Shown here one piece after another: positions 4,822 to 56,553 of a stretch of 64,000 bases of DNA. The notes beneath the pieces are model-generated. The model was not told the DNA's origin. It saw only the letters and a program-made list of their open reading frames with translations, and ran no database searches. The DNA is taken from NCBI GenBank assembly GCA_963834265.1, contig CAWIAU010000001.1, positions 469,523 through 533,522 of the forward strand, written 5' to 3'. How positions within the stretch are numbered: the stretch's first letter is position 1; each line of letters starts with the position of its first letter. The position numbers were made by a program, and so were the translations under genes. The DNA comes from an uncultured bacterium (GTDB lineage: Bacteria; Patescibacteriota; Saccharimonadia; Saccharimonadales; 2-12-FULL-41-12).

Positions 4822-4852
4822 ATACATTTTTATAATTTAAATCCAGTTTTAT

Positions 4853-5430
4853 GACGACTTGAAAAGTCGCCCCGAGTCACTTTCTTGTGCCAACAAAAAC
4901 CATGTTCTTCCGACGAAGAACCAAGTCGATACTTTTACCAACAGCTGCAAAAGTATCCAAAAAGAGCCGCAGCGGTTGCCAAAACAAAGACTGTCACTCA
5001 AAACCAGGTTAACCTGTGACATGGAAAACTCCCTCTGGTCGGCCCTGTTCTATTTTATTAGCAGAACGAACAGGGCTGGTTCCATGCCAATGATTCAGAT
5101 CAACCTGAATGAGCGTCAATCCGTTTTGCCAAATGCTGGATGGAACCATGGACTAAAGTATTTTTATTTATAAATAATCCAAAATTATCTTTAGTAATTT
5201 TTCCTTGGATTTCTCTCAGGCCCGAAAAGTTCCTGAGGAGCGAGTGCCAAAAGCACAATTAGAGCCGAAGCAATGTTTGAGACATTTCCTCTTTGAGTAT
5301 AGTTAAGAAATGTTGAGTTTGCTGAGCATTGTGGTTTTGACAATGAGATCCTAAAGAATCTTTTCGTCGCCTGTTGTTTCTTTGCCTACTTTCTGGTCAA
5401 CACAAGAAAGTAGGTTGAGGTGACTCTAAA
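4853..5430 (+). repeat. Archetype full copy of the modular intergenic repeat family (X+Y+Z contiguous). Module X 4853-4990 has a tgccaac-loop hairpin, the gttcttccgacgaagaac hairpin and gttgccaaaa. The middle segment carries actccctctggtcgg plus a variable hairpin. Module Y 5110-5152 is gttttgccaaatgctgg...ccatgg. Module Z 5215-5430 is caggcccgaaaagttcctga...gtgccaaaag...hairpin cctactttctggtcaacacaagaaagtagg
   Basis: Module-by-module similarity to 28035-28290, 28975-29050, 30645-30895, 31515-31737, 56255-56520, 1-35 and 611-670; seen directly. Confidence 0.8.
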
Positions 5431-5467
5431 GAGTCAACTTGAAATGGGTTTTATAAAAATAATAACT

Positions 5468-6328
5468 TTATTTGAGTTTCCAGTGATTATTTCCCAGCGG
5501 GTGGAGGACGCCTTTGATTTCCAGCATAGTCAGATGTTGTTGGAATTGCTCTACGGGCAGATCGCTTTTGAGTAGCAGTTCATGGCCGTCCTGAGATCCG
5601 CCCCGAAGATGGACCAGTATAGCCTCTTCCTCTACATTTTCGGCGTAATACTTATGTTGTGTCTCTTGTGTTGTGATATTAATATTCATTGCCTCAAAGA
5701 TATCCCCGATACATGTCACGGGCGTAGCGCCTATTTTGATCAGGTTATTCGTACCGGCACTGGTCGGACTGGTAATGTTGCCGGGTACAACCAGTACCGT
5801 TTTGCCTTGCTCCATGGCAAAACGAGCAGTATGCAGACTACCACTTCTTTCAGCAGCTTCTGTTACCAGCAAAGCATCGGAAAAGCCGGCAATGATCCGG
5901 TTGCGCTCAATAAAGCTCCCCTGATGCGGACGCGCTGCATTTTCGTATTCGCTTACCAGCAAACCACCGGATTCTGTGATTTGTCGTGCCAGACTGTGGT
6001 GACTGGCAGGATAGATAGCTTTGACCCCGCCCGGGAGCACTGCAATAGTCGTGCCATGTGTATCAAGCGCTGCTTTATGAGCAATGCTGTCTACTCCCAA
6101 AGCGAGTCCGCTGACTATTACAATTCCCTGCCTTGACGCAGCAGATGTCAGATCGGTGGTAATTGTTCTGCCGTACGGAGTGATATTTCTTGATCCGACA
6201 ACACCAAGTACCGGATTCTGAAGTAATATTTCCAGGTCAGCCCCCATGCAGGTTAATTGCTTTGGTATCTGAGGCAACTGCTTTAGTCTTTCAGGGAGTT
6301 CGTTACAAGATAATATTGTCGGTTTCAT
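5468..6328 (-). CDS. dprA: DNA processing protein A (DprA/Smf), Rossmann-like DNA-binding domain
   Basis: 286 aa; VVGSRNITPYGRTIT...VIVSGLALGVDSIAHKAAL...LPGGV...ERNRIIAGFSDALLVTEAAERSGSLHTARFAMEQGKTVLVVPG are typical DprA motifs. Confidence 0.88.
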   Translation of the reverse strand: MKPTILSCNELPERLKQLPQIPKQLTCMGADLEILLQNPVLGVVGSRNITPYGRTITTDLTSAASRQGIVIVSGLALGVDSIAHKAALDTHGTTIAVLPGGVKAIYPASHHSLARQITESGGLLVSEYENAARPHQGSFIERNRIIAGFSDALLVTEAAERSGSLHTARFAMEQGKTVLVVPGNITSPTSAGTNNLIKIGATPVTCIGDIFEAMNINITTQETQHKYYAENVEEEAILVHLRGGSQDGHELLLKSDLPVEQFQQHLTMLEIKGVLHPLGNNHWKLK

Positions 6329-14083: not shown

Positions 14084-14158
14084 GGTCCCGTCGTCTAACG
14101 GTCAGGACACCAGGTTCTCATCCTGGCAATAGGGGTTCGATTCCCCTCGGGATCACCA
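14084..14158 (+). tRNA. tRNA-Glu (anticodon CUC), 75 nt with encoded CCA
   Basis: Cloverleaf: acceptor GGTCCCG/CGGGATC, D-arm GTCT..GGAC, anticodon stem CCAGG/CCTGG with loop TTCTCAT, T-arm AGGGG-TTCGATT-CCCCT; close to the E. coli tRNA-Glu scaffold. Confidence 0.9.
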
Positions 14159-15779
14159 CAAGAGACTTTGCCTCGTGCAAGGTCTTTTTTGATGACGATA
14201 CTTCTTTGTCTAACAGATGTGCTTCACGAAAAACGTATCCAGTTTTTGTGGTTCCAAATTTCATGTCTGCAAATACGCTTACGCCATTAGGCAAAACCAT
14301 CTTTTGGAACCGTAATCTGTTGTCACCATCTGCAATGTTCCACATACGGGCAGCGTTGGCCATATAGTCGATAGCCATATCAATTACTTTGTTCACGTCT
14401 AGGAACTCCTGCTCAATCTCACTGAGTTCAATCTCCATACTGGTACGTTCTATGGCAATCTTGTCTTTTTGCTCCGCAAGTTCGATGTCGTTAATGGCAC
14501 CACGTCTACACATGTCTATATATTCAGACTTTTGTTTGTCGAGGTCTGTTATATTCTTCTGTGCCATCGTTCGTCTGGCAACAGTTTCTGCGTAGTCAGC
14601 ATTCCACTTGCGAAGGACTATCTCTCTAAAAAGAGAAAGAGAGGCTGGAGAGGGCTGTAAGCCCTCAATTAGCCTCTCGAATGCCTCGTGTAACTCCGTA
14701 CGAGCTAGCGTAAGGTGCTTGTACGTACCTTTCTGCTTTCCCGTACGTCGTACTACGCCTTTGCAGTGCGTACAGTGATAGTACTCGTAGGCACCACCTG
14801 AGCGTCCCTTAGAAAGGCTACCTGTAAGCGTATTACCGCAGTAGCCACATGTTAAAAACCGTCGTAATGTCCACCTGCTTCGATTTTCACCATACGTGTG
14901 TTTCGGTTGGTCGTTATCGCCACGTAGCCTTGATTGTATCTGCCAATACTCGTCGGCGGTGATGAGTGCATTGTGAAAATGTAATCCCACTTGCATGTCA
15001 TCAAGCCCTTTACCACTTACAAAACCCGCATATATGGGGTTTCTGAGCATTGAGTAGACTGTGCTTTGACCAACTGGCTTATCGTACATCTTGCTGTATT
15101 TGCGTTTGCCATTAACAAGGGTTAAGCCTTTTGCTTGTATCTTGTACTTGCTGGCTGCTAGCGTAGAGGCACTGTCATTCAATATCTTGCCTTTAGCGAA
15201 ATCCTTGAGAAAACGCTGGACGTGCTTTGCCATCTCATCAGGTTCAACCGTCGGACGCTTTAAGCTATCTTTGATGTTTCGGTACCCAATCGGTGCTTTA
15301 TGTACCCAGCCGCCTTCCTGTAGCCTTGCTTGCATCCCTTTCGATGAACGCTCAGAGCGAACAGCATTGTCAAACTCAGCAAACGAAGCCAAAATGTGCT
15401 CCATTAGCTTGCCAGACGGTGTGTCCTCGAGTAGCTCAGTAGCAGAGCACAGTCTTATGCCCAACTTCATGAATATATTTACCAGTGCTATGTGGTCCTC
15501 GGTTTTACGAGCGAGCCTATCCAGCTTCCACACAACGACGTACTTGATTTCACCCTTATGTTCCATGCAGTAGCTTATAAGCTCTTTGAGCTGAGTACGG
15601 TCGGCAGTTTTGGCACTTTCACCTTCTTCTATGAAAACCCTTTCAACTGTGGCGTTAAGGCTTTTGGCGACAAAGTCACGACAAGCCTTCTCTTGCATCT
15701 CAAGACTTTTGTTCATCTCGGCTTGCTCTACGGTTGATACTCGTGTGTAAATAACAGCTTTCATGCCTGTCTCCTCCAC
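14118..15779 (-). CDS. Large serine recombinase/integrase (resolvase catalytic domain, recombinase domain, zinc ribbon, coiled-coil). The likely start is at 15764 (MKAVIYTRVS). The 3' end overlaps tRNA-Glu by about 40 nt
   Basis: IYTRVSTVEQ (catalytic Ser region), ...VVVWKLDRLAR..., zinc-ribbon CGYCG...CTHC, 553 aa. Confidence 0.9.
   Translation of the reverse strand: MEETGMKAVIYTRVSTVEQAEMNKSLEMQEKACRDFVAKSLNATVERVFIEEGESAKTADRTQLKELISYCMEHKGEIKYVVVWKLDRLARKTEDHIALVNIFMKLGIRLCSATELLEDTPSGKLMEHILASFAEFDNAVRSERSSKGMQARLQEGGWVHKAPIGYRNIKDSLKRPTVEPDEMAKHVQRFLKDFAKGKILNDSASTLAASKYKIQAKGLTLVNGKRKYSKMYDKPVGQSTVYSMLRNPIYAGFVSGKGLDDMQVGLHFHNALITADEYWQIQSRLRGDNDQPKHTYGENRSRWTLRRFLTCGYCGNTLTGSLSKGRSGGAYEYYHCTHCKGVVRRTGKQKGTYKHLTLARTELHEAFERLIEGLQPSPASLSLFREIVLRKWNADYAETVARRTMAQKNITDLDKQKSEYIDMCRRGAINDIELAEQKDKIAIERTSMEIELSEIEQEFLDVNKVIDMAIDYMANAARMWNIADGDNRLRFQKMVLPNGVSVFADMKFGTTKTGYVFREAHLLDKEVSSSKKTLHEAKSLVVIPRGIEPLLPG
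14164..14190 (+). terminator. Intrinsic terminator after tRNA-Glu (stem gactttgc/gcaaggtc plus T6)
   Basis: Hairpin at 14164-14184 followed by tttttt at 14185-14190. Confidence 0.6.
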
Positions 15780-15806
15780 TTATTGTCGTTATTAAATTGT
15801 TAAAGT

Positions 15807-15992
15807 TCAACCAACCATCGTAGAGTTTGGAACCGATGGCTCCTTTTTGATGCTCTTGATGGTGATTTCCGCCATGAGTTCAAGCTCCAAGATTAGTGCC
15901 TCGACTTCGGCATCAGATAAGCTAGCATACTCTTTCCCAAGTAGTTTCCTAGCTTCCTTTGTTGATATTATTTGCTGTTGCTCGTCTAACAT
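15807..15992 (-). CDS. Small hypothetical protein (61 aa) immediately upstream of the serine recombinase; possible recombination directionality or regulatory factor (speculative)
   Basis: ORF only; position in a recombinase operon. Confidence 0.3.
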   Translation of the reverse strand: MLDEQQQIISTKEARKLLGKEYASLSDAEVEALILELELMAEITIKSIKKEPSVPNSTMVG

Positions 15993-16260
15993 GACAAGAC
16001 GATGATAGGCTCATACGGCATTCCGTTCAGGCAGTCACGAGAAAAAGTACGAGACGTATGCGACACGACCTCGCCTAGCAATAGTTCAAATACGGTTTGT
16101 TACGGTTTGTCTCGGTCAATACCTAAAAGAATGTCAGCCATTTCAGTACTAACTCGTATGGGATTTATTAACTCTACTTCGTCTTTGCCAATACGCTTAA
16201 AAAATATATCTTTGAGCAGTTTACTAAAACCACACTGTCTCAAAGTCTCTGATATGTCAT

Positions 16261-16693
16261 CTAGATCTTGCAAGCCGCGTCAACGTCTCTTTTGAGTTCC
16301 GCCAGCTTCACAAGAGAACCAGGACGATTGTTAATGATGTAGCTGGTCAGCAGGTCAGGTTGTAGCCCCGCTCTCAAACGTTTAATATGACGCTTTTTTT
16401 CACCAACTACCAACCATAAGTTAAGCCCATCTTTCATCAGGCGAACCTCAATATCCTTTTGATGACTGGCAGCAGCAGGTGTGGTACGGGGGCTTGAGCT
16501 TTCGTTCAAGTTCAGCGTAGATTACGTCAAACTTGTCTGAGAGCCTAAGCTCAACCGCATCTTCCATCATCGCATCATAATCAAAAATATCTGGGGCACG
16601 ACGTGGTATCGGGTCTACTTTAACAACGGTGAAGTCAAGGTCAAAATTAACAGGCACATTTGCTCTCACCGAATTGGCCATACGCCATATCAT
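16261..16693 (-). pseudogene. Disrupted gene of unknown function (two overlapping reading frames, 82 and 81 aa, with an open upstream extension)
   Basis: Two frames overlap at 16448-16509; the upstream frame continues without a start. Confidence 0.4.
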
Positions 16694-16833
16694 TTCGCGA
16701 GATATTGTTTGCGATACAGCACCAAGCGGTGTTTCACCATTATGCAGGATTAAACCGCTTAATTCTAATCGGTCCTTCTGGAGCTTCTACGTTTTCAATG
16801 ATGATTTTAGTGCGTGTTGCAGGGTTGATGTAG

Positions 16834-17052
16834 TTATACTGCCGATTTTTCGGCAACTGGGCTATCGCTGATACTAGGTCGGACGCTGTAATTTGCATAT
16901 TCGTTATTATTACTTTCTAAGAAGTATAATAGCGTATCTGCTATGCCTTTTGAAAGCACAAAGGGTACTCCGTTGCCAATCATTTTGAACTTTGCACTCA
17001 AGCTAACGGTTGGCGGCAGTTCAAACTCCTTTGGTAATGACTGGAGAGACAT
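16834..17052 (-). pseudogene. C-terminal fragment of a DNA (cytosine-5) methyltransferase (motifs IX-X only)
   Basis: LQSLPKEFELP...KMIGNGVPFVLSKGIADTLL matches the C5-MTase C-terminal motif (RLQGFPDDF...IGNAV); the N-terminal catalytic motifs are absent and the upstream space is occupied by the recombinase fragment. Confidence 0.65.
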
Positions 17053-17141
17053 CGCTTCGGCAACACTTATCCGTCTTGGAAGATAGGGGTGCAGATGAAC
17101 CTCATTATTGCCATATGCACAGGGTGGGCGAATATCTCCAT

Positions 17142-17940
17142 CTATGTAAACTTGGAGACACGCAATAGGTCGGACTTATATGATTTAACCAGTGTAGTTA
17201 CAAAAGTATGCCGAAAACCATGAATAGTCTTTTCAATCTCAAGCTCTGTCAACAATTCTTTTACGACATACCGCAGTCCTCGTGTTGTTAATCGACTGCC
17301 TTTTGTTTTGCCCCAAAGTGATGTGAATAGGGGTAATGCTTCGTCTCGCACCTGTGAGCTGCGTAGATACGCCCTGATGGCTTTGGTCGCCCTCGGGGTG
17401 GAGACAGATGTATTGTTTGCTGTCTCTGCCTTTTCCTAGCACTTGAACACGACCAGAAGCTAGGTCAACATCACCGATGTCCAACCGTACTATTTCTATT
17501 TGCCGAAGCCCTTGATACAGCAGCAATGCTACCACTGCCCGTAAGCGTAGTATCTTGAAACTGTCTGATTGCTCACGAAGGTGCTGACATACCATCTCCG
17601 CTTCCTGCTCCGTCAGACCCTCAACTTTGTGTTGAAGTGTTTGCTGGAACGACTTGACACCCAAGCTCAGGTCAATCGAGATTGCTCCACGCCTATACAG
17701 TTCCTTGAGTGCTATACGGGCAACTGCTAAGTATTTATTCTTGGCGGCAATACCGAAATCTGTTCGGCTACGCAGATATTTCTTATACTCCAGCAATGAA
17801 TTACGGTTGATGCCGTTACGGTGGAGAAAACCCGCAAATTGTGGCAGCCGTGCCAAGTAATCCTGCTTAGTGCTTTCGGCTATGTCCATATCATCAAACA
17901 GTGTCGGTGTGCCAATAACAGATAGAAAATTACTCATCAC
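17142..17940 (-). pseudogene. Tyrosine recombinase (XerC/D or phage-integrase family), frameshifted and C-terminally truncated
   Basis: N-terminal part 17239-17940 has the box I region LRLRAVVALLLYQGLRQIEIVRLDIGDVDL...VLGKGRDSK. The C-terminal HGFRHTFVT motif (HxxRH) is in another frame at 17142-17351. No catalytic Tyr segment was found. Confidence 0.7.
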
Positions 17941-18533
17941 TTGCTCCTTTCAACTGACGGAGCTTGGCAACATACCTATCATCGCCACTATCGGGTTCAA
18001 CCTTGCTGTATTCATCGAACCAGAGCTTATGGCGAAAGTCTATCTCGTCCTGTGTGCCATCTTGCCAGTTTCCAAGCATCTTACGACCTCGCTTTGTATG
18101 AAAATCTAAGCTGAACTCGGGGATTTGCAGCAACTTACCACCAGTGTGTTCGGTGCGTATCAGGTTTACTAAGCTATCGGCTTCACGGGTCTTAATCGCC
18201 CTGCACAGGTAAATGATTGCCTGAAACAGGAACACCAGAGCATCGTTTTTCTTTCGATTTATGCCTGTGATTGCAATCTGGTAGTTACTCAGTAGAGAGC
18301 TAACCAGTATTGCGGCATCTGGCGTTGCATTGCCTATGTCCTCACTTGCGATTATTAGCACCCGTTTCCATACGTATTTGTGATAGCCGCTTTCGTGAAT
18401 TATAAGATGCCCAGTAACAGGCTTCGTACTCTAGATTACGTCTGATACATTTCTGCAAGGCACTCGCTACTTCGTCGAACGTATAGTCGTTAATTAGTTT
18501 AATTTCATAGGGTTTTGATGATGCTGTTGCCAT
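17930..18533 (-). pseudogene. Fragment corresponding to the C-terminal (MgsA_C) domain of a RarA/MgsA recombination ATPase. It is split over two frames and lacks the AAA+ domain
   Basis: DEVASALQKCIRRNLEYEACYWA (compare SALHKSIRGSDPDAALYW) in 18342-18533, and LIIASEDIGNATPDAA...ALVFLFQAIIYLCRAIKT (compare RRLVIIASEDIGLADP...LAQAVIYLA.APKSN) in 17930-18361. Confidence 0.6.
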
Positions 18534-18794
18534 TTACTTGTCTCCTTTGGCTCAAGCTCATCTTCGCAGGTAAAAACAGGGGTGACAACCGCTATTTTTG
18601 TGAAGTTTTGTGAATATTAAGGTACTGGCTGTTCGGGAGCTTTTGATTGCTGACTTTGCTCTTGTTGCTTCTGACGTTCATAACGCATAATCGTCAGTTT
18701 CTCCATAGACTTGACAGCTTTATCCAGTTGCTCACGTTCTTCATCTGACAATGGCTTTGTCTCGTCTTCTATTACGTGAGTAAAAGCTTTCGGT

Positions 18795-19112
18795 TCAGCC
18801 CAGCCATATATAACTTGAAACAGTAGCTTCTGAGCGACCAAACGAGCCTTTAAGGGCAGAATTGACCACCGCCATTGTGATAACGTCAGTGTGAACTGCC
18901 AATCTGGCACGGTCTCGCTCAAACAGCTTTTCAAAGTCCATCTCTTGGAAATGTTTATTTACTGTCTCACGGCTAATACCAGTGAGCTTGGCAATCTCGT
19001 CTTGAGTTGGGGACTTTTGAGAAGTCTTATAGTGCGTCAGGATTGCGTTACTAATCCTGCGGTGGTTATCTTCCCAGTCGAGCCTTTTGTCTTTTGGAGA
19101 GTTTTGAGACAT
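18795..19112 (-). CDS. Helix-turn-helix DNA-binding regulator (about 106 aa from the internal Met at 19112). It is possibly fused by a frameshift to the overlapping downstream ORF 18617-18934. It is divergently transcribed from the cargo operon
   Basis: SPTQDEIAKLTGISRETVNKHFQEM is a typical HTH; AAAGGG RBS upstream of the 19112 start; a 140-nt two-frame overlap with 18617-18934 suggests a frameshift. Confidence 0.55.
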   Translation of the reverse strand: MSQNSPKDKRLDWEDNHRRISNAILTHYKTSQKSPTQDEIAKLTGISRETVNKHFQEMDFEKLFERDRARLAVHTDVITMAVVNSALKGSFGRSEATVSSYIWLG

Positions 19113-19229
19113 CAACAACCCTTTAGTTAATTGGTATTGTCTTGTCTCCGTTAGATATATTTTACCATAACCACATCTGTTAATATACCTATTTGTTATA
19201 GTTTCAGCACCAGTTAAGAGGAGTAGGAT

Positions 19230-19430
19230 ATGGACATAAAACCTGCTGATATTGCAGATATGCAAAAGCTATATAAAAAACACTTCGGCATTGAGTTAGA
19301 CTACGATACTGCCTACCGTAAACTAACGATGCTCGTGCGACAAATGGAGTTAGTCTATCAACCAATAACCAAAAAACAAGCTGATGCAATTCACGGTAGT
19401 GATGAGGAAGCAAAAAAGCATAAGGATTAA
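19230..19430 (+). CDS. Small hypothetical protein (66 aa), first gene of the cargo operon
   Basis: Strong RBS GAGGAGTAGGAT before the ATG; no recognisable motif. Confidence 0.5.
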   Translation: MDIKPADIADMQKLYKKHFGIELDYDTAYRKLTMLVRQMELVYQPITKKQADAIHGSDEEAKKHKD

Positions 19431-19458
19431 CAGGGGTAGAAATGATATAATAAGGAGT

Positions 19459-19924
19459 ATGAACTTTGAATTACTAGGCTGGTTGGTAGCGGCGGGAACA
19501 CTGGCTTTTACCGTTTATACCCATTTCGATAAGAAAAAGAGCCAAAAGGTTAAATTAAAAGTCACGTTTCAGAATGGAATGCTGACATTTCACGGTGGCG
19601 AGCTGAGCGAGGCGATGTTGTTTATCAAAAGCTGCGAACATTGGAAATAAAGCAGTTACTATCAATACACCCCATATAAATGTAAAACACAACGACGGCG
19701 GTTCACTATTTACCGAGTTCGGTTCGTACCAACGATTACCGTACGTACTCGAGCCAGGAGACAGTGTGGTTGCGTGGCACGAGATAAAGCCAATTGCCCA
19801 AGCTCTAAAAGGGCACGGGCTAACGGGCAAGATTAAATTAGAAGGCTATTTTACTAGCCAAGTCGGTGATGAGTATAAAGCTAAAGCCTACACCCTGGAC
19901 GTAGACGACTGGTCTAAGGATTAA
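19459..19924 (+). pseudogene. Frameshifted gene. The N-terminal part (19459-19650, 63 aa, one TM helix, AAGGAG RBS) continues in the +1 frame (about 19607-19924, no in-frame ATG) as a beta-rich domain. The shift is probably within the A4 homopolymer near 19627-19630 (assembly error, programmed +1 frameshift, or decay)
   Basis: The second frame is open from 19607 to a TAA at 19922-19924 and encodes about 105 aa (...GSLFTEFGSYQRLPYVLEPGDSVVAWHEIKPIAQALKGHGLTGKIKLEGYF...) with no ATG, GTG or TTG start before residue 50; it ends 4 nt before the next ATG. Confidence 0.5.
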
Positions 19925-19928
19925 CACT

Positions 19929-21176
19929 ATGCCGATTGTCGGTGGCCAAATGTATGCAGAAGCCAGAGAGCAATTACGCAACTTCAACGAGCTGAATGTA
20001 CTTATACTTGGTTCAAGCACGAGAGAGATTGTAGCATTTCTGGAACAACTCAGCACGATGCACGTATACATCAATCAAACTCTGGGAACTAATGTAGGCA
20101 TAAAAGTTCACTGCACTGGTGCTTTTGATAGCAGAATTGCCCAACACTTTGGCTTAACGGTCCGTTCGCTGTCCGATATAAACGAGACTTCAACAAAAGA
20201 GCTTGTTCAAGCTGCCGACATTGACGTTATCTTCGACCAAGACAATGTATTGAGCAAACGGTACGCCCAGGATAATTTCTATGCCTTTCAGACTGTGAAT
20301 AGACTGACCGAGCTAGTTGCTTCCTGTGAAGACTTCTTAGTAGGAAATGACATCGCTTGGCTCTTTTCAAACATTACGTGGAACTTGCCCCTATTTATGC
20401 GTTACTTTGACCGCCCTGGGTTGTGTAGGGACTATTTTATGTTTATGGGCGAATGTACGGGCACTCACGGTTATACTAGCGACCAACAAGATAAAGTCAG
20501 GTACATCGCTAACCGCCTCGGGCAAATCGAGTATTCAAAAGACATCATACAGTCCTATATCAAGCGTATGCGTAAGGCAAAGCGTAATGGTTACTCGGAG
20601 CAAGATTTTGGTCTAGAGCTGAACTATCATCTTGGAAACTACTACTTCCTGATTGCTGGAGTTCTGGATAGTATGGCAAGGCTGTTGAATAACGTCTTGA
20701 AACTAGAACTAAACCGTCACCAGCTAGCACTTGAAAAAGAGGATTTTATTAACGCCAACAGGCGTAAAAGAACTGGCCTCGTCCGCATACTCACCAAAAG
20801 AGAGTTCACAGATTGGCAAAGCTTTTTAAAAGAACGCCGACACTTTATAGCCCACGAAGGTGATATGAGACAAAGCCCCCTCGTCGAGCAAAACGATGTA
20901 CTGCTAACTAACGACGAGGTAGAGAGACTGGTTGATGCCCAGAGCGACTGGACATATATGGCAACATTCACCACACGAGAAGTTATCCAAGCATTACGAG
21001 CTCAATCGGCTCAGATGGTTCGTATACAGCACGATTACAAAACAGTTGCTGAGTACGCAATGATAGTACCGAACGCCAACGGTACTAAGATATTCCAGCC
21101 CTTGAGGAGTATTGAGTATGACTATGACCAACTTGCTGACGTAATGACTAAGTTCCTGGCTAGATTAAAGGGCTGA
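19929..21176 (+). CDS. Hypothetical 415-aa cargo protein with a Rossmann-like N-terminal domain and a C-terminal R-x4-H (HEPN-like) motif (KERRHFIAHEG); candidate RNase or abortive-infection effector (hypothesis)
   Basis: Alternating beta-alpha pattern NVLILGSST...MHVYINQ...GIKVHCTGAF...DIDVIFDQD in the first roughly 120 aa; RRHFIAH motif at about residue 305; located on the integrated element as the last gene of an operon. Confidence 0.55.
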   Translation: MPIVGGQMYAEAREQLRNFNELNVLILGSSTREIVAFLEQLSTMHVYINQTLGTNVGIKVHCTGAFDSRIAQHFGLTVRSLSDINETSTKELVQAADIDVIFDQDNVLSKRYAQDNFYAFQTVNRLTELVASCEDFLVGNDIAWLFSNITWNLPLFMRYFDRPGLCRDYFMFMGECTGTHGYTSDQQDKVRYIANRLGQIEYSKDIIQSYIKRMRKAKRNGYSEQDFGLELNYHLGNYYFLIAGVLDSMARLLNNVLKLELNRHQLALEKEDFINANRRKRTGLVRILTKREFTDWQSFLKERRHFIAHEGDMRQSPLVEQNDVLLTNDEVERLVDAQSDWTYMATFTTREVIQALRAQSAQMVRIQHDYKTVAEYAMIVPNANGTKIFQPLRSIEYDYDQLADVMTKFLARLKG

Positions 21177-21365
21177 TTGATAGGTTCCATTCTATACCTG
21201 CACTAATGCACGTACTTTCTTCACTGATGTCGTATCTAGCACGTCGTGCCAGGAGACTAGTTCCTTCTTGAGTAGGTTCCAATTCTTTATCTCGTAGTTC
21301 ACCAGGAAAATGGACCGCGTTTTTTGTGGTCTGTTTTCATGTTAATTGTTGATAGAGAATCGAAC

Positions 21366-21388
21366 GGGAATGTTCGGTGAACATTCCC
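21366..21388. repeat. Perfect 10-bp inverted repeat with a 3-nt spacer (gggaatgttc ggt gaacattccc), about 60 bp inside the attR-like end of the element
   Basis: Seen directly; nested with cgaac...gttcg. Confidence 0.7.
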
Positions 21389-21444
21389 CGCCCGCCGCTC
21401 CAAAGGAGTTGCCTTAGCAAAAGTAATTTTCTTTTGCGGCAAGG

Positions 21445-21464
21445 TCGATTCCCCCGGATCACCA
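21445..21464 (+). repeat. Imperfect direct repeat of the tRNA-Glu 3' end (attR-like remnant)
   Basis: tcgattcccccggatcacca versus tRNA 14138-14158 tcgattcccctcgggatcacca (20 of 22). Confidence 0.7.
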
Positions 21465-21465
21465 A

Positions 21466-22191
21466 TTATTTGCTTTGCAAAGTTTTGTTAAACCACTTTA
21501 GGATAGTATTTTGCAGGGTTTCTTTCCACCTGGGCTCAGTCAGGGTGTGCGGAGCCCCCTCGATCACATATAGCTGCTTCTTGTCCGCTTGCATGGCGGC
21601 GTTTATGTAGGCTTTGGGGATAGATAACGGAATGAGCGCGTCATTTTCTGAGGCCACCACTAGTAAGCTACCGTTGAAATTACGGATAGCATTGCCGGCA
21701 GGTGTAGCTTCTAAATCTCCTATCTGATGAAATTGTCTATTTTCATTAACCATCGTTTCTGCCATGCTAAGCCGCATCATTTCGGCAGTGTAAGCCGCAG
21801 GGGCACGAAACACAATGCTCCGTATAAGTCGTTTGTCAGATACCATAGCTGCGAGGATTGCTCCAACACTTGACCCGACAAGACCTATGCTGGTGGCATC
21901 TACTTCGGGTTGGCTGACTAGAAAATCGTATGCGGCTAAAGCATCGCTAATGGCTTCTGCAACCGTAGACCTTTCAAAGTCTCCTTCGCTTTCGCCATGG
22001 CCACGCATACTGATAGCAAGCCCTGCAATTCCCTGCTCTGCTAAACTTTGAGTTAGAGTTATATAGCTGTTCTCGGAACTCGTCATTCCATGAAAAATAA
22101 TTACACCCGGACAAGGTTTTTTGACCGCTGGCGGTATAGCAAGGGTGCCATGAATTGTCAGGCTATCACTCAAAAATGTTACTTCCTGCAT
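21466..22191 (-). CDS. Alpha/beta hydrolase (dienelactone hydrolase or S9-like serine hydrolase fold)
   Basis: Nucleophile elbow LVGSSVGA (GxSxG) and the motif GHGESEG; 241 aa. Confidence 0.75.
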   Translation of the reverse strand: MQEVTFLSDSLTIHGTLAIPPAVKKPCPGVIIFHGMTSSENSYITLTQSLAEQGIAGLAISMRGHGESEGDFERSTVAEAISDALAAYDFLVSQPEVDATSIGLVGSSVGAILAAMVSDKRLIRSIVFRAPAAYTAEMMRLSMAETMVNENRQFHQIGDLEATPAGNAIRNFNGSLLVVASENDALIPLSIPKAYINAAMQADKKQLYVIEGAPHTLTEPRWKETLQNTILKWFNKTLQSK

Positions 22192-22262
22192 TGTCCCAGT
22201 ATACTAAAGAAAGCTTCACTAGTGCTTGAGGAGTAATTAGCGAAGCTGCCTTCCTTTTAATT

Positions 22263-27926: not shown

Positions 27927-28034
27927 GTTTTACTCTTGGTTGTTTCTGGCTGGTTATGTTTATCTTAGTGTAAACCTCTGGTTCAAAAAGGTAAAGCATA
28001 AAATACGCATTCTGAAAAGCAACTAAAAACAAAT

Positions 28035-28290
28035 CTTTTTTTAAATCAGTTTCAAATGCCCTGCTTCGCAGTCCACTTGAGCTACTTTCTTGTGCCAACA
28101 AGAAAGTAGCCAAAGAAATGGCAGCAGTTGCCAAAAGCCTACTGAGTCCAATACCAGACTGACTTGTGATGTCCAGGACTCCTTACGGTCGGTCATTTTT
28201 ATAATTTTATAAGAGAAAAATGACTGGCTGGACATCAATGATTCAAGTCACCCTGATTGGACTCAATCGGTTTTGCCAAATGCTGGTCAG
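28035..28290 (+). repeat. Copy of intergenic repeat modules X+Y (perfect 11-bp hairpin ctactttcttg-tgccaa-caagaaagtag; gttgccaaaag; actccttacggtcgg; ggttttgccaaatgctgg)
   Basis: Alignable with 4853-5152 and 30645-30895. Confidence 0.75.
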
Positions 28291-28303
28291 AATCAATAAT
28301 CAG

Positions 28304-28906
28304 CTAAAGAGCGATCATAGTGTTAAGGGCAGTATTTATTGCTGAAATTGCTTCCGTTTCTTTCGTTGCTTGTGGGTCTTGCTGTGAGCTTGTACAACTT
28401 CCCCCAGGAGGACCCGCCAAATAATAGTAATCGTTAAGTTGTTTTTTGAATCGTGGGCTGTTTTCAGACATCATTGCGTCGTAGGTTTCCTTGAAGCTTC
28501 CCGCTTCACCAATTTCACCTATATATTTATCCAGTGCTTTACCTCTCTCAATAATAACCGTGCTGGCTGTGCAGTCTTTTGTAATGTTGTCTAAAATTTT
28601 TGACCTAAAGGCAAAGACAATGTTGCCATTTTGTTTTGTGTAAGCAAGACCATCTACCTGATCATTCAGTGGTATTTTAATTCCCCACTCGCTAACCGTT
28701 AAGTATTTTTGACTTGCTACTACTTCGTTCGTTGTATCAGTTTCTGGCTTTGGGTCATTCTTCTGAGAAGAAACCGATGAAGAATCTTCATTTTTATCTT
28801 TACTGGCATTAATCACATAGAATCCTGTGCCGGCAATCATTGATAAGGCAACGATTATTAATATGCCCTCGATTACACCGAAACCTTTTTGAGTAAGCTT
28901 TTGCAT
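28304..28906 (-). CDS. Type IV pilin-like protein (class III signal peptide, prepilin cleavage motif KGF|GVIEG with Glu at +5)
   Basis: N-terminus MQKLTQKGFGVIEGILIIVALSMIAGTGFYV. Confidence 0.75.
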   Translation of the reverse strand: MQKLTQKGFGVIEGILIIVALSMIAGTGFYVINASKDKNEDSSSVSSQKNDPKPETDTTNEVVASQKYLTVSEWGIKIPLNDQVDGLAYTKQNGNIVFAFRSKILDNITKDCTASTVIIERGKALDKYIGEIGEAGSFKETYDAMMSENSPRFKKQLNDYYYLAGPPGGSCTSSQQDPQATKETEAISAINTALNTMIAL

Positions 28907-28974
28907 AATATACTCTGCATTTCGATTATGGTTGTTTTAAATTACTATACAGCTTTTGATCTTAAATAAATACT

Positions 28975-29050
28975 TTAGTCCATGGCTCCCAACCAGGCCT
29001 TACAGCTTCCTGATAAGCGAGTGTCAGAAGAACAGTTCTTTTCTTTGCTA
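28975..29050 (+). repeat. Degenerate copy of the module Z start (ccatgg...caggcc...cttcctgataagcgagtgtcagaag)
   Basis: Aligns with 31515-31560 and 5146-5250, with an internal deletion. Confidence 0.5.
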
Positions 29051-29120
29051 AAAGAATTTGTATTTAGGAAAATAAAATATTACTTCTGTTATATAATAGA
29101 ATCTACAGCCTCACAAAACT

Positions 29121-30611
29121 ATGGAATTTCTTGATCCGATAAAAAAACGTCAGCGCTCTATCCGTCTCAACATCGGTCACTTACTTATGGCGGCTTTGGT
29201 TGTTATCGGTACCTATGTTCTGGTTCTGAGGGCTCAGGGCTATGATATAGATCGCAAGAGTGGCGAAGTTATACAAAATGCACTGGTTTTTGTTGACAGT
29301 GCTCCTGATGCGGCCACGATTAAAATAAATAACGAGCAATATAAAGACCTGACAAATACACGAATGGCTCTGCCGGACGGTAGCTATAAGTTAGAGCTTA
29401 ATAAAGCGGGTTATCGTGGCTGGCAAAGAGAATTTTCGGTAATTGGCGGTAGCGTGGAGCGATTTACTTATCCCGTGTTATTTCCCGAAAAGCTGGCGTC
29501 TGCAGAAGTGCAGACTTTTGACGGCGTGCCGACGATTGCTACAGAAAGCCCTGATCGCAAGTGGGTTTTGCTCGGACAACCCGGAACTACGGATACTTTT
29601 ACTCAGTATAATCTCGGGGCACTTACGAACCGTAAGCCCGCTGCTACATCATTCAAATTGCCTGCAGGCGTATTAACGGAGGCTGAGGGGGCACAGAGCT
29701 GGCAATTTGTTGAATGGTCCAGCGATAACCGGCATGTATTGCTCAGGCATATTTTCACGGGCGGACAAGAGTTCATTCTTGTCGATCGTGATGATCCAAC
29801 CCAGACAGTTAATATTAATCGTCAGCTTGCTCAGAACCCTACTACCATTACTCTGCGGGATAAAAGGTTTGATCAGCTATACCTGCATAATCAGGCCGAC
29901 CTGACTCTTAAAACTGCTGATTTGAAAACCCGTGTAGTCACACCCCTGTTAAATGGTGTATTAAGTTACAAATCACACGGTGGAGACAGGCTACTATACT
30001 CAACCGTTAGTCCTGCAGAGCAGGCCAAAGCAAGAATCTTCCTGAAAACCGGCAATGATACGTACGTGCTGCGTGATATACCTGTGTCAGCCAGTATGCC
30101 TCTGGAAATAGCACAATTCAACAATCACTGGTACATAGTAATCGGTAGCGACGCCGAGCAAAAAGTATACATATATAAAGATCCGCAGAATATTCTGAAA
30201 CTGCGTAATGACCAGAAGCCTGCGATTACTGCCATTTTTCGCATGGGAGGTCCTTTGCAGTCCTTGTCATTCTCTAATAACACTCGCATGATCATGGCTA
30301 ATAGCGGTCAGCATTTTAATATTTATGACATTGAGACAAAGCGTAGCTACGGATACAATATTACGGATCCACTTGACATCGGAAGCATTCCTCTCTGGAT
30401 GGATGGTCACCGTTTACTGATCCGCAGCGCAGGTAATGTAATCGTATTTGATTACGACGGTATTAATAAGCAGATATTAGTTCCTTCTGACCCTGCTATT
30501 CCCGTATTTTTTGACCGTGATTATGAAGCACTTTACAGTCTTAGCCCTTCTCTGTCTGCATCCGGCAAGCAGGTCTTCGGTCGCACCGAACTCCGCGTAC
30601 TGCCCAAATAG
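29121..30611 (+). CDS. Membrane-anchored PEGA-domain protein followed by a beta-rich (propeller-like) extracytoplasmic domain
   Basis: TM LLMAALVVIGTYVLVL; PEGA-like ATIKINNEQYKDLTNTRMALPDGSYKLELNKAGY. Confidence 0.65.
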   Translation: MEFLDPIKKRQRSIRLNIGHLLMAALVVIGTYVLVLRAQGYDIDRKSGEVIQNALVFVDSAPDAATIKINNEQYKDLTNTRMALPDGSYKLELNKAGYRGWQREFSVIGGSVERFTYPVLFPEKLASAEVQTFDGVPTIATESPDRKWVLLGQPGTTDTFTQYNLGALTNRKPAATSFKLPAGVLTEAEGAQSWQFVEWSSDNRHVLLRHIFTGGQEFILVDRDDPTQTVNINRQLAQNPTTITLRDKRFDQLYLHNQADLTLKTADLKTRVVTPLLNGVLSYKSHGGDRLLYSTVSPAEQAKARIFLKTGNDTYVLRDIPVSASMPLEIAQFNNHWYIVIGSDAEQKVYIYKDPQNILKLRNDQKPAITAIFRMGGPLQSLSFSNNTRMIMANSGQHFNIYDIETKRSYGYNITDPLDIGSIPLWMDGHRLLIRSAGNVIVFDYDGINKQILVPSDPAIPVFFDRDYEALYSLSPSLSASGKQVFGRTELRVLPK

Positions 30612-30644
30612 CCAGGATTATATTTTCGATTAATTTTTTTGATA

Positions 30645-30895
30645 AAAAATAGTTCTTCCGACGAAGAACCAAGTCAATACTTTTGTCAGCAGCAACAAAA
30701 GTATCCAAAAACGCCGCAGACAGTTGCCAAAATCACGATAGAAAATCAGTCCAAATAGAGCGTGGCTCCGGAACTCCCTCCGGTCGACCCCACCTTATAT
30801 TTTTATAGAAAGGCGGGGCTAGTCCTCGCCAATGACTCGCTCTATTTGCCCGAATTTTCATCGGTTTTGCCAAATGCTGAAGTAATTCATGGATT
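30645..30895 (+). repeat. Copy of intergenic repeat modules X+Y (gttcttccgacgaagaac hairpin; gttgccaaaa; actccctccggtcga; ggttttgccaaatgctg; catgga)
   Basis: About 85% identical to 4904-4984 and alignable to 5123-5152. Confidence 0.75.
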
Positions 30896-30956
30896 TTTTT
30901 TATCAATTTAAAAACATATCATTGATAATTTTACCTTAATATGATAATGTGATGAA

Positions 30957-31502
30957 ATGGTAATTCCGCTCGAGGCTCAGACCTTTGAAACATATGAAGC
31001 AAATACGGCATCGCAAAGAACGGCTCTTGGACTTTCGAGAGATATAGCTAATTTGGCTATTGAGCAATTTGCGTGTAGTGAGCCGACAAAACCTGCTGCA
31101 TTTTATTTTTCGGGCCCTGCGGGCGTTGGAAAGACACATCTACTTCATTCAATTGCAGCAGTTCTTATTGAAAATGAAATCCCGCATGCTAGATGGCAGA
31201 AAGACCTAGGACCTTCAGTAGCTGAACAGATTAAACATGTACAATTAATTGATGATTTTGATCCTACCTTACTTTATATATTTAATCGGGCTGTTGTTGA
31301 CTGTTACTATCCGAGAGGTCAGTTATTAGTTATTAACTCTAATGAACCATTAAAAGTTGTCAAAAATGGACTTAAAAGTATCGATGAACACGGACGTGCG
31401 GCTTCTCGTTTGTCAGAAATGATTAAAAGAGGTCAGGAAATCAAAATGACGGGGCCTGATCATCGACAAACAGGTAATTTCCCCAAAGCTATTCCAAAAT
31501 AA
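30957..31502 (+). CDS. DnaA domain III / Hda-like AAA+ ATPase (181 aa; there is no DnaA N-terminal domain or domain IV)
   Basis: QTFETYEAN (compare DnaA YTFDNFV), Walker A FSGPAGVGKTHLLHSI, Walker B LIDDFD, sensor-1 LLVINSNEPL. Confidence 0.7.
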   Translation: MVIPLEAQTFETYEANTASQRTALGLSRDIANLAIEQFACSEPTKPAAFYFSGPAGVGKTHLLHSIAAVLIENEIPHARWQKDLGPSVAEQIKHVQLIDDFDPTLLYIFNRAVVDCYYPRGQLLVINSNEPLKVVKNGLKSIDEHGRAASRLSEMIKRGQEIKMTGPDHRQTGNFPKAIPK

Positions 31503-31514
31503 TAATGTGTTTGT

Positions 31515-31737
31515 CCATGGTTTGCCTCAGGCCCGAAAAGTTCCTGATTAGCGAGTGCCAAAAGTACAATTAGAGCGAAGCAGTGTCTAAGCCAATCTCT
31601 CATTGAAAGTAATTAAAAATTGGTGAGTTTGCTGAGCATTGTGCTTTTTGACAATAAGATCATAAAGAAGCTTTTCGAGCCTGTTGCTTCTTTGCCTACT
31701 TTCTGGTCAACACAAGAAAGTAGGTTGTGGTGACTTT
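31515..31737 (+). repeat. Copy of intergenic repeat module Z (ccatgg...ctcaggcccgaaaagttcctga...gtgccaaaag...hairpin cctactttctggtcaacacaagaaagtagg)
   Basis: About 85-90% identical to 5215-5430. Confidence 0.8.
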
Positions 31738-31784
31738 TAAGTCGTCATGAATATGGATTTTATTAAAAATAATTCTTTATGGGT

Positions 31785-33068: not shown

Positions 33069-33079
33069 TGCCGCGGTGG
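33069..33079 (+). repeat. 11-nt duplicate of the tRNA-Leu 5' end region (tgccgcggtgg), 50 bp upstream of the intact tRNA
   Basis: Identical to 33129-33139. Confidence 0.5.
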
Positions 33080-33129
33080 TAGAACCAAGTGCGGAGCACG
33101 TTAAATTATTGATGCATATTTCCCTTTGT

Positions 33130-33214
33130 GCCGCGGTGGCGGAATTGGTATACGCGCACGACTCAAAATCGTGTTCCTAACGGATTGAGAGTTCAAGTCT
33201 CTCCCGCGGCACCA
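33130..33214 (+). tRNA. tRNA-Leu (anticodon CAA), 85 nt with a long variable arm and encoded CCA
   Basis: Acceptor GCCGCGG/CCGCGGC; anticodon stem CACGA/TCGTG with loop CTCAAAA; variable arm; T-arm GAGAG-TTCAAGT-CTCTC. Confidence 0.88.
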
Positions 33215-33268: not shown

Positions 33269-33292
33269 GTTCAGGTCTCTCCCGCGGCACCA
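33269..33292 (+). repeat. 23/24-nt direct repeat of the tRNA-Leu 3' end (gttcaggtctctcccgcggcacca), 54 bp downstream of the tRNA; att-site-like scar
   Basis: Compare 33191-33214 gttcaagtctctcccgcggcacca. The upstream context does not fold as a tRNA (the T-stem 5' strand is missing). Confidence 0.75.
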
Positions 33293-33308
33293 CAATATTT
33301 CAAATGGC

Positions 33309-54106: not shown

Positions 54107-55120
54107 ATGAAAATGACGGACTTTCGGATTGGCACACTTGGTAGCCATTCGGCGCTTCAGATACTCAAAGGTGCGCACGACGAGGGTTTTGAGACTGTAG
54201 TCATTACTGAACATGGCAAATCCAGACCCTACAAGTCCTTTGGTGTAGCCGACACGATTATAGAAGTTGATTCGTTCAATAGCGTTGATAAACTAGAGCC
54301 TCGGCTGATTAAAGAAAAAGTAATACTAATCCCCCACGGTTCATTCTTTAGCGCCTACGGCCTGGAAGCACTGGGCAAAATGAAAGCTATGTACTTCGGC
54401 AACAAAGCGATTCTGCCGTGGGAAGAAGACCGTACGAAACAGCGCGAGTGGCTCAAGAAATCCGGCCTGACCCTGCCTAAAATTTATAAAACACCCGAAG
54501 ATATCGATGGTCCGGTTATCATCAAATTCTTTGGTGCCGGCGGAGGTAAAGGTTACTTCCTGGCGACCAGCACTGCTGAGTTCCATCAAAAGATCAAACC
54601 ATTCGAAGGACGAAAATATATTATCCAGCAGTATGTAGTCGGTGCGCCGATCTACGTGCACTATTTTTATTCTCCGCTTAATGACGAACTGGAAGTCATG
54701 GGCATGGATAAACGCTACGAAACAAACGTTGACTCTATCGGCCGGATAAGTGCCAAAGATCAGCTGGATCTGAATATTGAGAGTTCATACAACATCATGG
54801 GTAATATGCCTCTGGTGATTCGCGAATCGTTATTGCCGGAAATCTTCGAAATGGGCCAGCGCGTCGTAGACACTTCTAAAAAGCTGGAACCTCACGGGCT
54901 GTTCGGGCCGTTCTGTCTGGAAATGATTGTAACCCCGGAGCTGGAGTTTTATGTATTTGAGATATCGGCCCGTATCGTAGCCGGTACCAATCCATACATC
55001 AACGGTTCGCCCTACACTGATCTGCGGTACAGTGAGCCGATGAGTACCGGCCGGCGGATTGCCCGTGAAATCAAACATTCGATCGATCAGGACAAAATGG
55101 ATATGGTGATACAGCAATGA
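54107..55120 (+). CDS. purP: PurP-family ATP-grasp enzyme (archaeal-type FAICAR synthetase, 5-formaminoimidazole-4-carboxamide ribonucleotide synthetase), paralog 1
   Basis: IGTLGSHSALQILKGAHDEGFETV, ...HYFYSPLNDELEVMGMDKRYETNVD..., ...GPFCLE..., ...GRRIAREIK match conserved PurP blocks. Confidence 0.7.
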   Translation: MKMTDFRIGTLGSHSALQILKGAHDEGFETVVITEHGKSRPYKSFGVADTIIEVDSFNSVDKLEPRLIKEKVILIPHGSFFSAYGLEALGKMKAMYFGNKAILPWEEDRTKQREWLKKSGLTLPKIYKTPEDIDGPVIIKFFGAGGGKGYFLATSTAEFHQKIKPFEGRKYIIQQYVVGAPIYVHYFYSPLNDELEVMGMDKRYETNVDSIGRISAKDQLDLNIESSYNIMGNMPLVIRESLLPEIFEMGQRVVDTSKKLEPHGLFGPFCLEMIVTPELEFYVFEISARIVAGTNPYINGSPYTDLRYSEPMSTGRRIAREIKHSIDQDKMDMVIQQ

Positions 55121-56244: not shown

Positions 56245-56254
56245 TTTTTTTTAA

Positions 56255-56520
56255 ATCAGCTTCAGACCGGCCTGAAGGTCAGCCCGACTTCCTTTTTGTG
56301 CCAACAAAAACGAAGCGAAAAAATGGCAGGACTCGAAAAGCTTTTTTATGATCTCATTGTCAAAAAGCACAATGCCCGGCAAACTTGATATTTCTTTTAT
56401 TAATTTTTACAGAATAAAATATCTTCAAACACTGCCTCGACTCTATTTGTGCTTTTGACACTCGCTCATCAGGAAGCTTTTCGGGCCTGGCAAAAACCAT
56501 GGACTGAAGTATTATTAAAC
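56255..56520. repeat. Mosaic copy of the intergenic repeat. It has the module X start with the hairpin cttcctttttg-tgccaa-caaaaacgaag, the inverted module Z middle and start (tctcattgtcaaaaagcacaatgc; ttgtgcttttgacactcgctcatcaggaagcttttcgggcctgg), and the Y-end motif aaccatggactgaagtatt
   Basis: Segment-wise matches to 28035-28140, 5215-5330 (reverse complement) and 5143-5165. Confidence 0.75.
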
Positions 56521-56553
56521 TGAATAATGAAGAAATAAATAAAAAAGGGGATA

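Follow-up and report, generated by a model that had tools for sequence, protein, structure and literature searches.

Single genes in a Saccharimonadales genome lie between two inverted-repeat arms that resemble a non-autonomous foldback element

We analyzed a 64-kb stretch of the chromosome of an uncultured, tiny, parasitic bacterium of the Saccharimonadales (Saccharibacteria/TM7; contig CAWIAU010000001.1, positions 469,523 to 533,522; hereafter the window), in which two kinds of repeat modules, designated X+Y and Z, occur several times. With a probability of roughly 0.55, X+Y and Z form, as its two arms, a single non-autonomous foldback element of ~0.6 kb, which is similar to a MITE (miniature inverted-repeat transposable element) when free of cargo and to a mobile insertion cassette (MIC) when loaded with a gene. 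Saccharimonadales have genomes of 0.7–1 Mb with few recognized mobile elements, and to our knowledge, it is poorly understood how they gain lineage-specific genes. An earlier note on this DNA, made from the sequence alone, had observed that single genes sit between an X+Y and a Z module, which are contiguous elsewhere, and had offered integron cassettes, MITE-captured genes, or recombination between repeat copies as explanations. Capture by a MITE turned out to be the best fit among these options, considering the long terminal inverted repeats, the lack of a transposase, the diverged and broken copies, and the presence of one cargo-free copy.

The repeats were mapped in three ways, by seed extension, by blastn, and by nhmmer with profiles made from the copies themselves, and we used R1, a covariance model of the Y hairpin, for scanning the window. 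The nhmmer profiles located four X+Y modules, at 681-406 (−), 4842-5155 (+), 28039-28299 (+), and 30615-30896 (+), and five Z modules, at 63-2 (−, truncated by the window start), 5163-5460 (+), 28968-29036 (+, a remnant), 31490-31774 (+), and 56539-56242 (−). R1 found the same four X+Y copies with scores of 132–172 bits and no further match. All four X+Y modules are followed by a Z module in the same orientation within 700 bp downstream, and this pairing is not a matter of chance. Between the arms, we found ~50 nt without a gene in one case (copy B, 4842-5460) and a single open reading frame (ORF) in three cases, namely an 84-residue ORF in copy A, a pilin-like gene in copy C, and an Hda-like gene in copy D. 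The layout of the earlier note, with genes carried by a split repeat, is thus real and non-random by nhmmer and R1, being represented by three loaded units and one cargo-free copy, and the ORFs are found where it had placed them, at 28304-28906 (−), 29121-30611 (+), and 30957-31502 (+). Its list had missed two instances, the unit with the 84-residue ORF at 1-681 (−) and a solitary Z module at 56242-56539 (−; copy E). It had also counted the PEGA-domain gene at 29121-30611 (+) among the bracketed genes. This gene is located between two elements, the Z remnant of copy C and the X+Y arm of copy D, and not within a unit. As a conserved core gene, it has >380 homologues, and its neighbors are conserved in four related contigs (L003, L004, L006, and L007). 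Homologues of its product are recorded under the name Candidatus Saccharimonadales.

The architecture of the modules suggests that the two arms belong together. The first ~90 nt of X+Y, termed X, form two small hairpins (X1 and X2) and recur in inverted form as the last ~90 nt of Z. All three complete Z ends are matched on their reverse strand by profile positions 22-113 of X, with E = 5e-7 to 8e-6 (nhmmer; inverted-repeat pairs I6 and I11). Every unit is therefore bounded by long terminal inverted repeats. Y folds into a long imperfect hairpin (~170 nt) with an invariant closing helix (CAGCGGTTGCCAAAA / TTTTGCCAAATGCTG), and Z holds another long hairpin of ~160 nt. Taken per arm, the imperfect hairpin measures 170–220 nt. 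One palindrome is formed by the end of Y and the beginning of Z, which are its two arms; its left arm reads CCATGGACTAAAGTATTT in copy B and its right arm AAATACTTTAGTCCATGG in copy C and AATACTTCAGTCCATGG in copy E. By blastn, the left arm of copy B, once reverse-complemented, is 90–91% identical to the right arms of copies C and E. The cargo always occupies the loop of this central hairpin, between CCATGG half-sites. Its edges vary, with the left arm being retained up to CCATGGACT in copy A and up to TCATGGA in copy D, and lost in copy C, while the cargo-free copy B retains two half-sites ~50 nt apart. The statement that genes sit exactly between the units thus holds for the position of the cargo near the half-sites, but not for one fixed boundary.

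Inverted-repeat pairs I7 and I8 put copies A and B at 92% identity over the center and the beginning of Z, but in X+Y the two are only 72% identical (blastn), and such mosaic copies point to recombination between copies. The hexamer TGCCAA (TTGGCA on the other strand) occurs four to five times per element in the hairpin loops and helix bases of X, Y, and Z (4842-5460, 28039-28299, and 30615-31774) and may be a candidate protein-binding motif. A short motif resemblance (TTGYCAAAAC, TTTTGSCA) raised the idea of Z as an inverted paralogue of Y, for which neither nhmmer nor R1 detected any link. A coding role for X+Y was rejected. The arms are spanned by ORFs of 65–104 residues, whose frame is disrupted by indels from copy to copy and whose start codon is not maintained.

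Copy B is the only complete copy among the five. It extends from 4842 to 5460 (+), as defined by nhmmer, R1 (172 bits), sequence, and fold, and consists of the outer (4842-4900) and inner (4904-4960) hairpins of X, the long hairpin of Y (4967-5140), the central palindrome or hairpin (5142-5206), the long hairpin of Z, and, at the 3′ end, the X hairpins in inverted form. It resides between two convergent genes, at 3151-4821 (+) and dprA at 5468-6328 (−). Copy A, on the minus strand, is cut by the window edge. Its X+Y arm (405/406-681, nhmmer E = 2e-76, R1 158 bits) lies downstream of topA and is followed by the 84-residue ORF (70-324), which, according to the ORF list and the sequence, has a ribosome-binding site (AGGAG) and a promoter of the TGgTATAAT type, and by the right arm of the central hairpin with the start of Z (1-63; pairs I7 and I8, nhmmer E = 4e-9), showing 92% identity to the corresponding part of copies B and D. 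In copy C, the X+Y arm (28039-28299, +; nhmmer E = 1e-63, R1 168 bits) precedes the pilin-like gene on the opposite strand (28304-28906, −; ORF list) and the right arm of the palindrome, TACTTTAGTCCATGG, with the first ~75 nt of Z (28963-29050, +; blastn, nhmmer E = 3e-8, and alignment). A deletion has removed the remainder of Z together with the right terminal repeat.

Copy D has a decayed end, as the outermost part of X in its X+Y arm has degenerated (30615-30896, +; nhmmer E = 2e-68, R1 132 bits). The arm is followed by the gene for the 181-residue Hda-like ATPase (30957-31502, +; ORF list) and the Z arm with the right terminal inverted repeat (31490-31774, +; nhmmer E = 1e-90 and empty-site alignment), and the insertion ends at ~31764 when compared with empty sites. 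Copy E (56242-56539, −; nhmmer E = 1e-87 and sequence) comprises a Z arm alone, including the palindrome arm ACTTCAGTCCATGG. It is situated directly 3′ of the stop codon of a CFA (cyclopropane fatty acid) synthase gene (56554-57744, −; Pfam CMAS) and abuts the stop codon of the convergent gene at 55117-56244 (+). No X+Y partner was found for it, including beyond the CFA-synthase gene.

We compared the neighborhood of the PEGA gene on the four Saccharimonadales contigs, in which the PEGA protein has identities of 66% (L003), 69% (L004), 48% (L006), and 49% (L007). The order of gltX, a gene for a 370-residue protein, the PEGA gene, and the sortase gene is kept in all four contigs. The spacer between the PEGA and sortase genes measures 25, 20, and 80 bp in L003, L004, and L006, respectively, compared with ~1.17 kb in the window. 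The spacer between the 370-residue gene and the PEGA gene is 90–130 bp long and gene-free in L004, L006, and L007, compared with ~1.19 kb in the window. Each of the two sites that could be checked, those of copies C and D, is accordingly empty in three of the four relatives. Both flanks of the 1150-bp block of copy D (30615-31764) converge on a single point, position 2092 of L004, and the flanks of 28005-29083, covering the unit of copy C, converge within positions 513-562 of L004. No X, Y, or Z sequence was detected in L003, L004, L006, or L007. As most relatives have empty spacers and none has a repeat there, the gain or loss concerns the whole X+Y-gene-Z unit and not a break at the Y/Z junction. 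The visible polymorphism is one of whole units with breakpoints at their outer ends. The earlier note had anticipated presence/absence polymorphism, which is indeed observed, with breakpoints at the CCATGG junction of Y and Z, which is not.

The repeat family is rare. A pattern for the Z motif gave no true match in 185,579 GTDB species representatives, the JGI metagenome contigs, or IMG/VR; two JGI matches were due to chance and fell in a eukaryotic kinase gene. Scanning with an X+Y pattern, which returned nothing from IMG/VR, uncovered one true locus, L005, in a Saccharimonadales metagenome-assembled genome (JANWLD010000003.1). The element there (110-700) is located between divergent genes, upstream of rpsB, and its X+Y arm is partnered with a second, inverted X+Y arm instead of Z, making it a near-symmetric foldback with the same Y structure as in the window. 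The Y cores of L005 are 95% identical over 43 nt, and their tip stems and hairpins are completely different. The inverted pair indicates that the arms are modular and that the design is that of a foldback. A blastn search of copy B against plasmids and phages found nothing, and we found no literature on Saccharibacteria with MITEs or with structured RNA.

The arms appear to be maintained as folded structures. Our alignment of six X+Y arms comprised the four of the window and the two of L005. Standard base pairs fill 89% of the pair cells, compared with 77% in column shuffles and 35–49% when the partners are slid by 1–3 columns. Both sides have changed in 33 of the 68 pairs, compared with 15 in shuffles, and the covariation score is 0.458 as opposed to 0.217. 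None of the 500 shuffles reached any of the observed pairing or covariation values. The tip stem of Y (9–10 bp) is different in each copy and always fully paired, and the unpaired CGACCnnAGGGAGU loop beside it is invariant in all six Y copies, including those from the other genome. The folding also prefers one strand. The consensus energy of X+Y is −55.8 kcal/mol on the strand complementary to the orientation used in the earlier note and −32.7 kcal/mol on the other, and the corresponding values for the whole of copy B are −207 and −171 kcal/mol, with z = −9.2 for the reverse and −5.6 for the forward strand. The favored strand contains 35–40 G-U pairs, which are A-C on the other strand, compared with only 5–10 of the converse kind. 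This bias follows the orientation of the element, since in copy A, which is inverted, it is found on the other strand of the chromosome; this rules out a replication-strand mutation bias as the source of the G-U asymmetry. The core of Z has no clear strand preference, leaving the idea of outward-reading, two-fold symmetric functional strands unsupported. Compensatory variation together with strand bias points to a folded single strand, either RNA or DNA, and we conclude that single-stranded X+Y (RNA or single-stranded DNA) is under selection.

The cargo genes are foreign-looking or related to genes of mobile elements, and elsewhere they are not tied to the repeats. The cargo segments of copies C and D have a GC content of 37–38%, compared with 45.8% for the window. 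The pilin-like protein of copy C (200 residues) contains a class-III signal, KGFGVIEGIL. It has no Pfam match and is an ORFan, matching only itself among 5.8 billion proteins. The 84-residue ORF of copy A has no match in PHROG, NCBIfam, or plasmids. By contrast with these negative searches, the Hda-like protein of copy D has matches in Pfam, PHROG, and NCBIfam and belongs to a family of ~185-residue homologues with seven matches below 1e-10. The Walker A, Walker B, sensor, and arginine motifs are conserved in this family, and Walker A, Walker B, and the sensor are intact in the cargo protein. Its AlphaFold model reached a predicted local distance difference test score (pLDDT) of 87 with the family alignment (40 without), and the best-matching folds were DnaI, domain III of DnaA, the AAA+ domain of IstB, DnaC, and Hda. 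The protein is a core-only AAA+ ATPase of the DnaA/DnaC/DnaI/IstB clade of initiators and loaders. The intact ~185-residue family, the conserved AAA+ motifs, and the confident fold exclude a decayed gene fragment.

The homologues of the Hda-like protein form a small, undescribed ATPase family associated with mobile elements. One of them (L008, 34-2309) lies divergently beside a large serine recombinase of 553 residues, and another (L009, 1357-3867) is 1.5 kb away from a transposase fragment. A further homologue is located on a 1.8-kb contig with spacers of 174 and 83 bp, which are too short for repeat arms. The orientation of the cargo is mixed, the pilin-like gene being inverted relative to the other two, and promoter-like sequences upstream of the cargo in copies A and D make it appear that the cargo genes bring their own promoters. 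We also considered that the cargo might represent captured fragments of host genes, as in Pack-MULEs, and rejected this possibility because no paralogous DNA or protein was present within the window.

Several observations weigh against a mobile foldback element. Neither a transposase nor an autonomous element with matching ends was found among ~50 scanned ORFs of the window. The candidates for target duplications, TTTTATAA (8 bp) in copy B and GGTCAAC (7 bp) in L005, were each reached by ~12% of shuffles, and copy D has no target duplication when compared with the empty sites. The copies are 67–88% identical to each other and thus show no sign of recent transposition. The genomes with empty sites are only 48–69% identical in the PEGA protein, so that loss in these lineages or a stepwise assembly of the units is possible; at this distance, gain and loss are not separable, nor are one-step and stepwise assembly. 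Moreover, unrelated ORFan genes without flanking repeats reside in the same two spacers, at 9044-9856 of L003 (270 residues) and at 11490-11921 of L007 (143 residues). These spacers, between the 370-residue and PEGA genes and between the PEGA and sortase genes, take up genes by other routes as well and are general hot spots for lineage-specific genes. As for the folding, hairpin-templated repair of DNA palindromes can also produce compensatory changes without selection on a folded molecule and could add to the apparent covariation.

Under the foldback-element reading, the units would be gained as blocks. They would be mobilized in trans, the enzyme being encoded at another place in the 720-kb genome, or arrive by recombination after DNA uptake. 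The folded arms might act as single-stranded RNA, serving as modules for processing, stability, or termination, or as single-stranded DNA recognized during movement. The central palindrome could be the place where cargo enters or is exchanged, through illegitimate recombination or recombination between copies and without a dedicated integrase.

The strongest rival treats X+Y and Z as resident modules of structured non-coding RNA, for instance acting at 3′ ends, in stability, or in termination, or forming an ornate RNA of ~580 nt, which have spread by duplication and tolerate ORFs in a variable loop, with the RNA as the function and mobility being incidental. The covariation and G-U strand asymmetry of X+Y, the invariant unpaired loop next to the hypervariable but always paired tip stem, and the z-score of −9.2 for the whole of copy B are what such an RNA would show. 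On the favored strand, X1 followed by a U-run resembles a terminator in copies B and D (in copy D on the minus strand at 30671-30650, terminator scan), and Z comes directly 3′ of a stop codon in copies A, D, and E. However, the terminator-like feature is not found in copies A and C or in L005, and Z has no clear strand preference. In the window, the Rfam gathering score was reached only by tRNAs, and for copy B, the best matches at E up to 10 were unrelated small RNAs scoring below 20 bits. Four of the five copies are broken or incomplete, unlike members of a selected gene family, and because the two Y arms of L005 are mutually inverted, one transcript cannot hold both in the favored sense. 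As resident RNA modules would also leave the terminal inverted repeats and the presence or absence of whole units unexplained, we consider this explanation rather unlikely.

More speculative is the proposal that the elements represent an undescribed gene-shuttling class of the candidate phyla radiation (CPR), that is, a structure-defined, two-armed foldback working through single-stranded RNA or DNA and capturing and swapping single ORFan genes at its central palindrome without an integron integrase. We regard this as doubtful. If true, a naturally competent lineage with tiny genomes would have solved the gene-cassette problem a second time, independently.

Less probable still is a cassette system proper, in which X+Y and Z would form a resident site where single genes enter and leave at the CCATGG palindrome by the action of a site-specific recombinase encoded elsewhere, for instance one of the genome's serine or tyrosine recombinases, similar to attC/attI or the attB sites of serine integrases. 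Three unrelated single genes indeed occupy the same internal position in the palindrome loop, between the two half-sites, and structure is kept over sequence with one strand favored, as in attC. The earlier note had seen no integron-type integrase in the window, which we can confirm, though the recombinase picture is broader and includes a large serine recombinase (14118-15779, 553 residues) and a tyrosine-integrase (Phage_integrase) fragment (17239-17940, 233 residues); in L008, as mentioned, a homologue of the ATPase cargo is next to a serine recombinase. These two recombinases, however, belong to a separate island beside tRNA-Glu with no repeat arm nearby, the integrase fragment being 10 kb away. 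The cargo has no fixed boundary, faces both directions, and has apparent promoters of its own, the cargo-free copy B still contains two half-sites, and the only polymorphism observed is that of whole units.

Finally, X+Y and Z could be independent half-elements that inserted separately at gene ends, the bracketing resulting from repeated insertions into permissive spacers around new ORFans, as the solitary Z of copy E, the modular arms of L005, and the repeat-free ORFans in the same spacers of L003 and L007 might suggest, but this is the least probable explanation, since a same-orientation Z within 700 bp of all four X+Y modules is very unlikely for independent insertions, and the arms have their terminal inverted repeats in common and each contribute one half of the same central palindrome, as expected of one unit.

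Returning to the foldback element as the preferred reading, five copies in 64 kb imply that the family could account for a few percent of the genome. The bracketed genes are of the small, fast-evolving kind involved in the cell surface or DNA handling (the pilin-like gene and the ATPase of the DnaC/IstB clade) that vary from strain to strain. Should the units be mobile, they would provide an episymbiont with a route to single-gene gain, and if the arms are functional RNAs, they would constitute a new class of ornate RNA. The repeat family also interrupts short-read assemblies. Among short-read contigs of the same strain (ERR12037361), an 11.8-kb contig covering 19121-30946 of the window stops ~10 nt before the start codon of the Hda-like gene, which is found alone on a 1-kb contig (window 30703-31706). 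Contigs ending in or next to copy D are consistent with a nearly identical arm sequence elsewhere in the genome.

Apart from the repeats, the window contains the housekeeping genes topA, dprA, gltX, tgt, guaA, and purA as well as a sortase gene. The ~8-kb island beside tRNA-Glu (14084-22200) encodes, in addition to the serine recombinase and the Phage_integrase fragment, an MgsA_C fragment, a helix-turn-helix protein, and a HEPN_Cthe2314 protein. In L003, which lacks the island, the histidine kinase gene is directly beside the DinB/IMS gene, identifying the island as an insertion. The tRNA-Leu gene (33130-33214) is flanked by partial copies of its own 5′ end (~33072-33086) and 3′ end (~33270-33298), resembling a scar of integration and excision. 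The earlier note had drawn attention to this scar, 1.3 kb away, but we found no link between it and the repeat elements. At 54107-56244, two tandem paralogous genes encode proteins with DUF1246 and DUF1297 domains (ATP-grasp, PurP-like), and the stop codon of the second gene abuts the terminal repeat of copy E.

Among known systems, elements of the IS200/IS605 insertion-sequence family and palindrome-associated transposable elements (PATEs) have no inverted repeats but sub-terminal hairpins on just one strand, a gene for a Y1 TnpA or TnpB in the vicinity, and insertion 3′ of a fixed target of 4–5 nt. The ends of the element described here are inverted repeats, no TnpA or TnpB was found in the window, and the flanks have no tetranucleotide in common. 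The large structured RNAs OLE, GOLLD, ROOL, and HEARO/IscB omega-RNA are comparable in length (~580 nt here), in having many covarying helices, and, in the case of HEARO, in being multi-copy and mobile-looking. In contrast to them, our element has no Rfam match and no IscB, TnpB, or phage context in the window, most of its copies are broken, and it has two-fold inverted symmetry. ERIC, Correia/NEMIS, bcr1, and RPE are dispersed inverted repeats of 100–170 bp without genes, which form stable hairpins when co-transcribed with adjacent genes and are often located at gene ends. By analogy, the present element would differ from them in its size of ~600 bp, its several conserved helices, and its apparent ability to hold an ORF. 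In eukaryotes, FB elements and Pack-MULEs place long inverted arms around captured unrelated genes without a transposase inside. The parallel is an analogy; the element here is bacterial, carries complete small genes and not fragments, and gives no evidence of homology.

Integron cassettes resemble the units in that single genes are flanked by a repeat that is contiguous elsewhere and that fold and one strand outweigh sequence. The attC analogy drawn in the earlier note nevertheless fails in each defining feature that could be tested. There is no IntI, attI, Pc, or tandem array, and the fragment at 17239-17940 is the only tyrosine-recombinase signal. Sites of the attC type are imperfect hairpins of 57–141 nt with RYYYAAC/GTTRRRY cores, located 3′ in each cassette, whereas the modules here are 250–300 nt long, 4–5 times longer, with several helices and a CCATGG junction. 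Integron cassettes are mostly promoterless, in tandem, and in one orientation, whereas the cargo here points both ways with apparent promoters of its own, and the units are separate from each other.

Mobile insertion cassettes consist of two inverted repeats without a transposase gene, which flank at least one coding sequence (CDS) over ~0.7–3 kb and are mobilized in trans (PMC6199540; a further example is given in PMC5444012). The element shares with MITEs and MICs, such as MIC231 of Bacillus cereus and the qnrS2 MIC of Aeromonas pAC3, the inverted repeats at its ends, the lack of a transposase, and a size of 0.6–1.2 kb. Some copies are likewise empty and others contain one unrelated CDS, and the copies are intergenic, multiple, diverged, and present or absent among relatives. 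It differs from them in that we found neither a cognate insertion sequence nor a transposase in the window, nor any clear target duplication. Unusual, too, is the length of the inverted repeats, ~90 nt in the window and ~230 nt in L005, and the interior is an ornate, covarying group of hairpins with an invariant loop instead of filler, with the cargo placed in the central palindrome.

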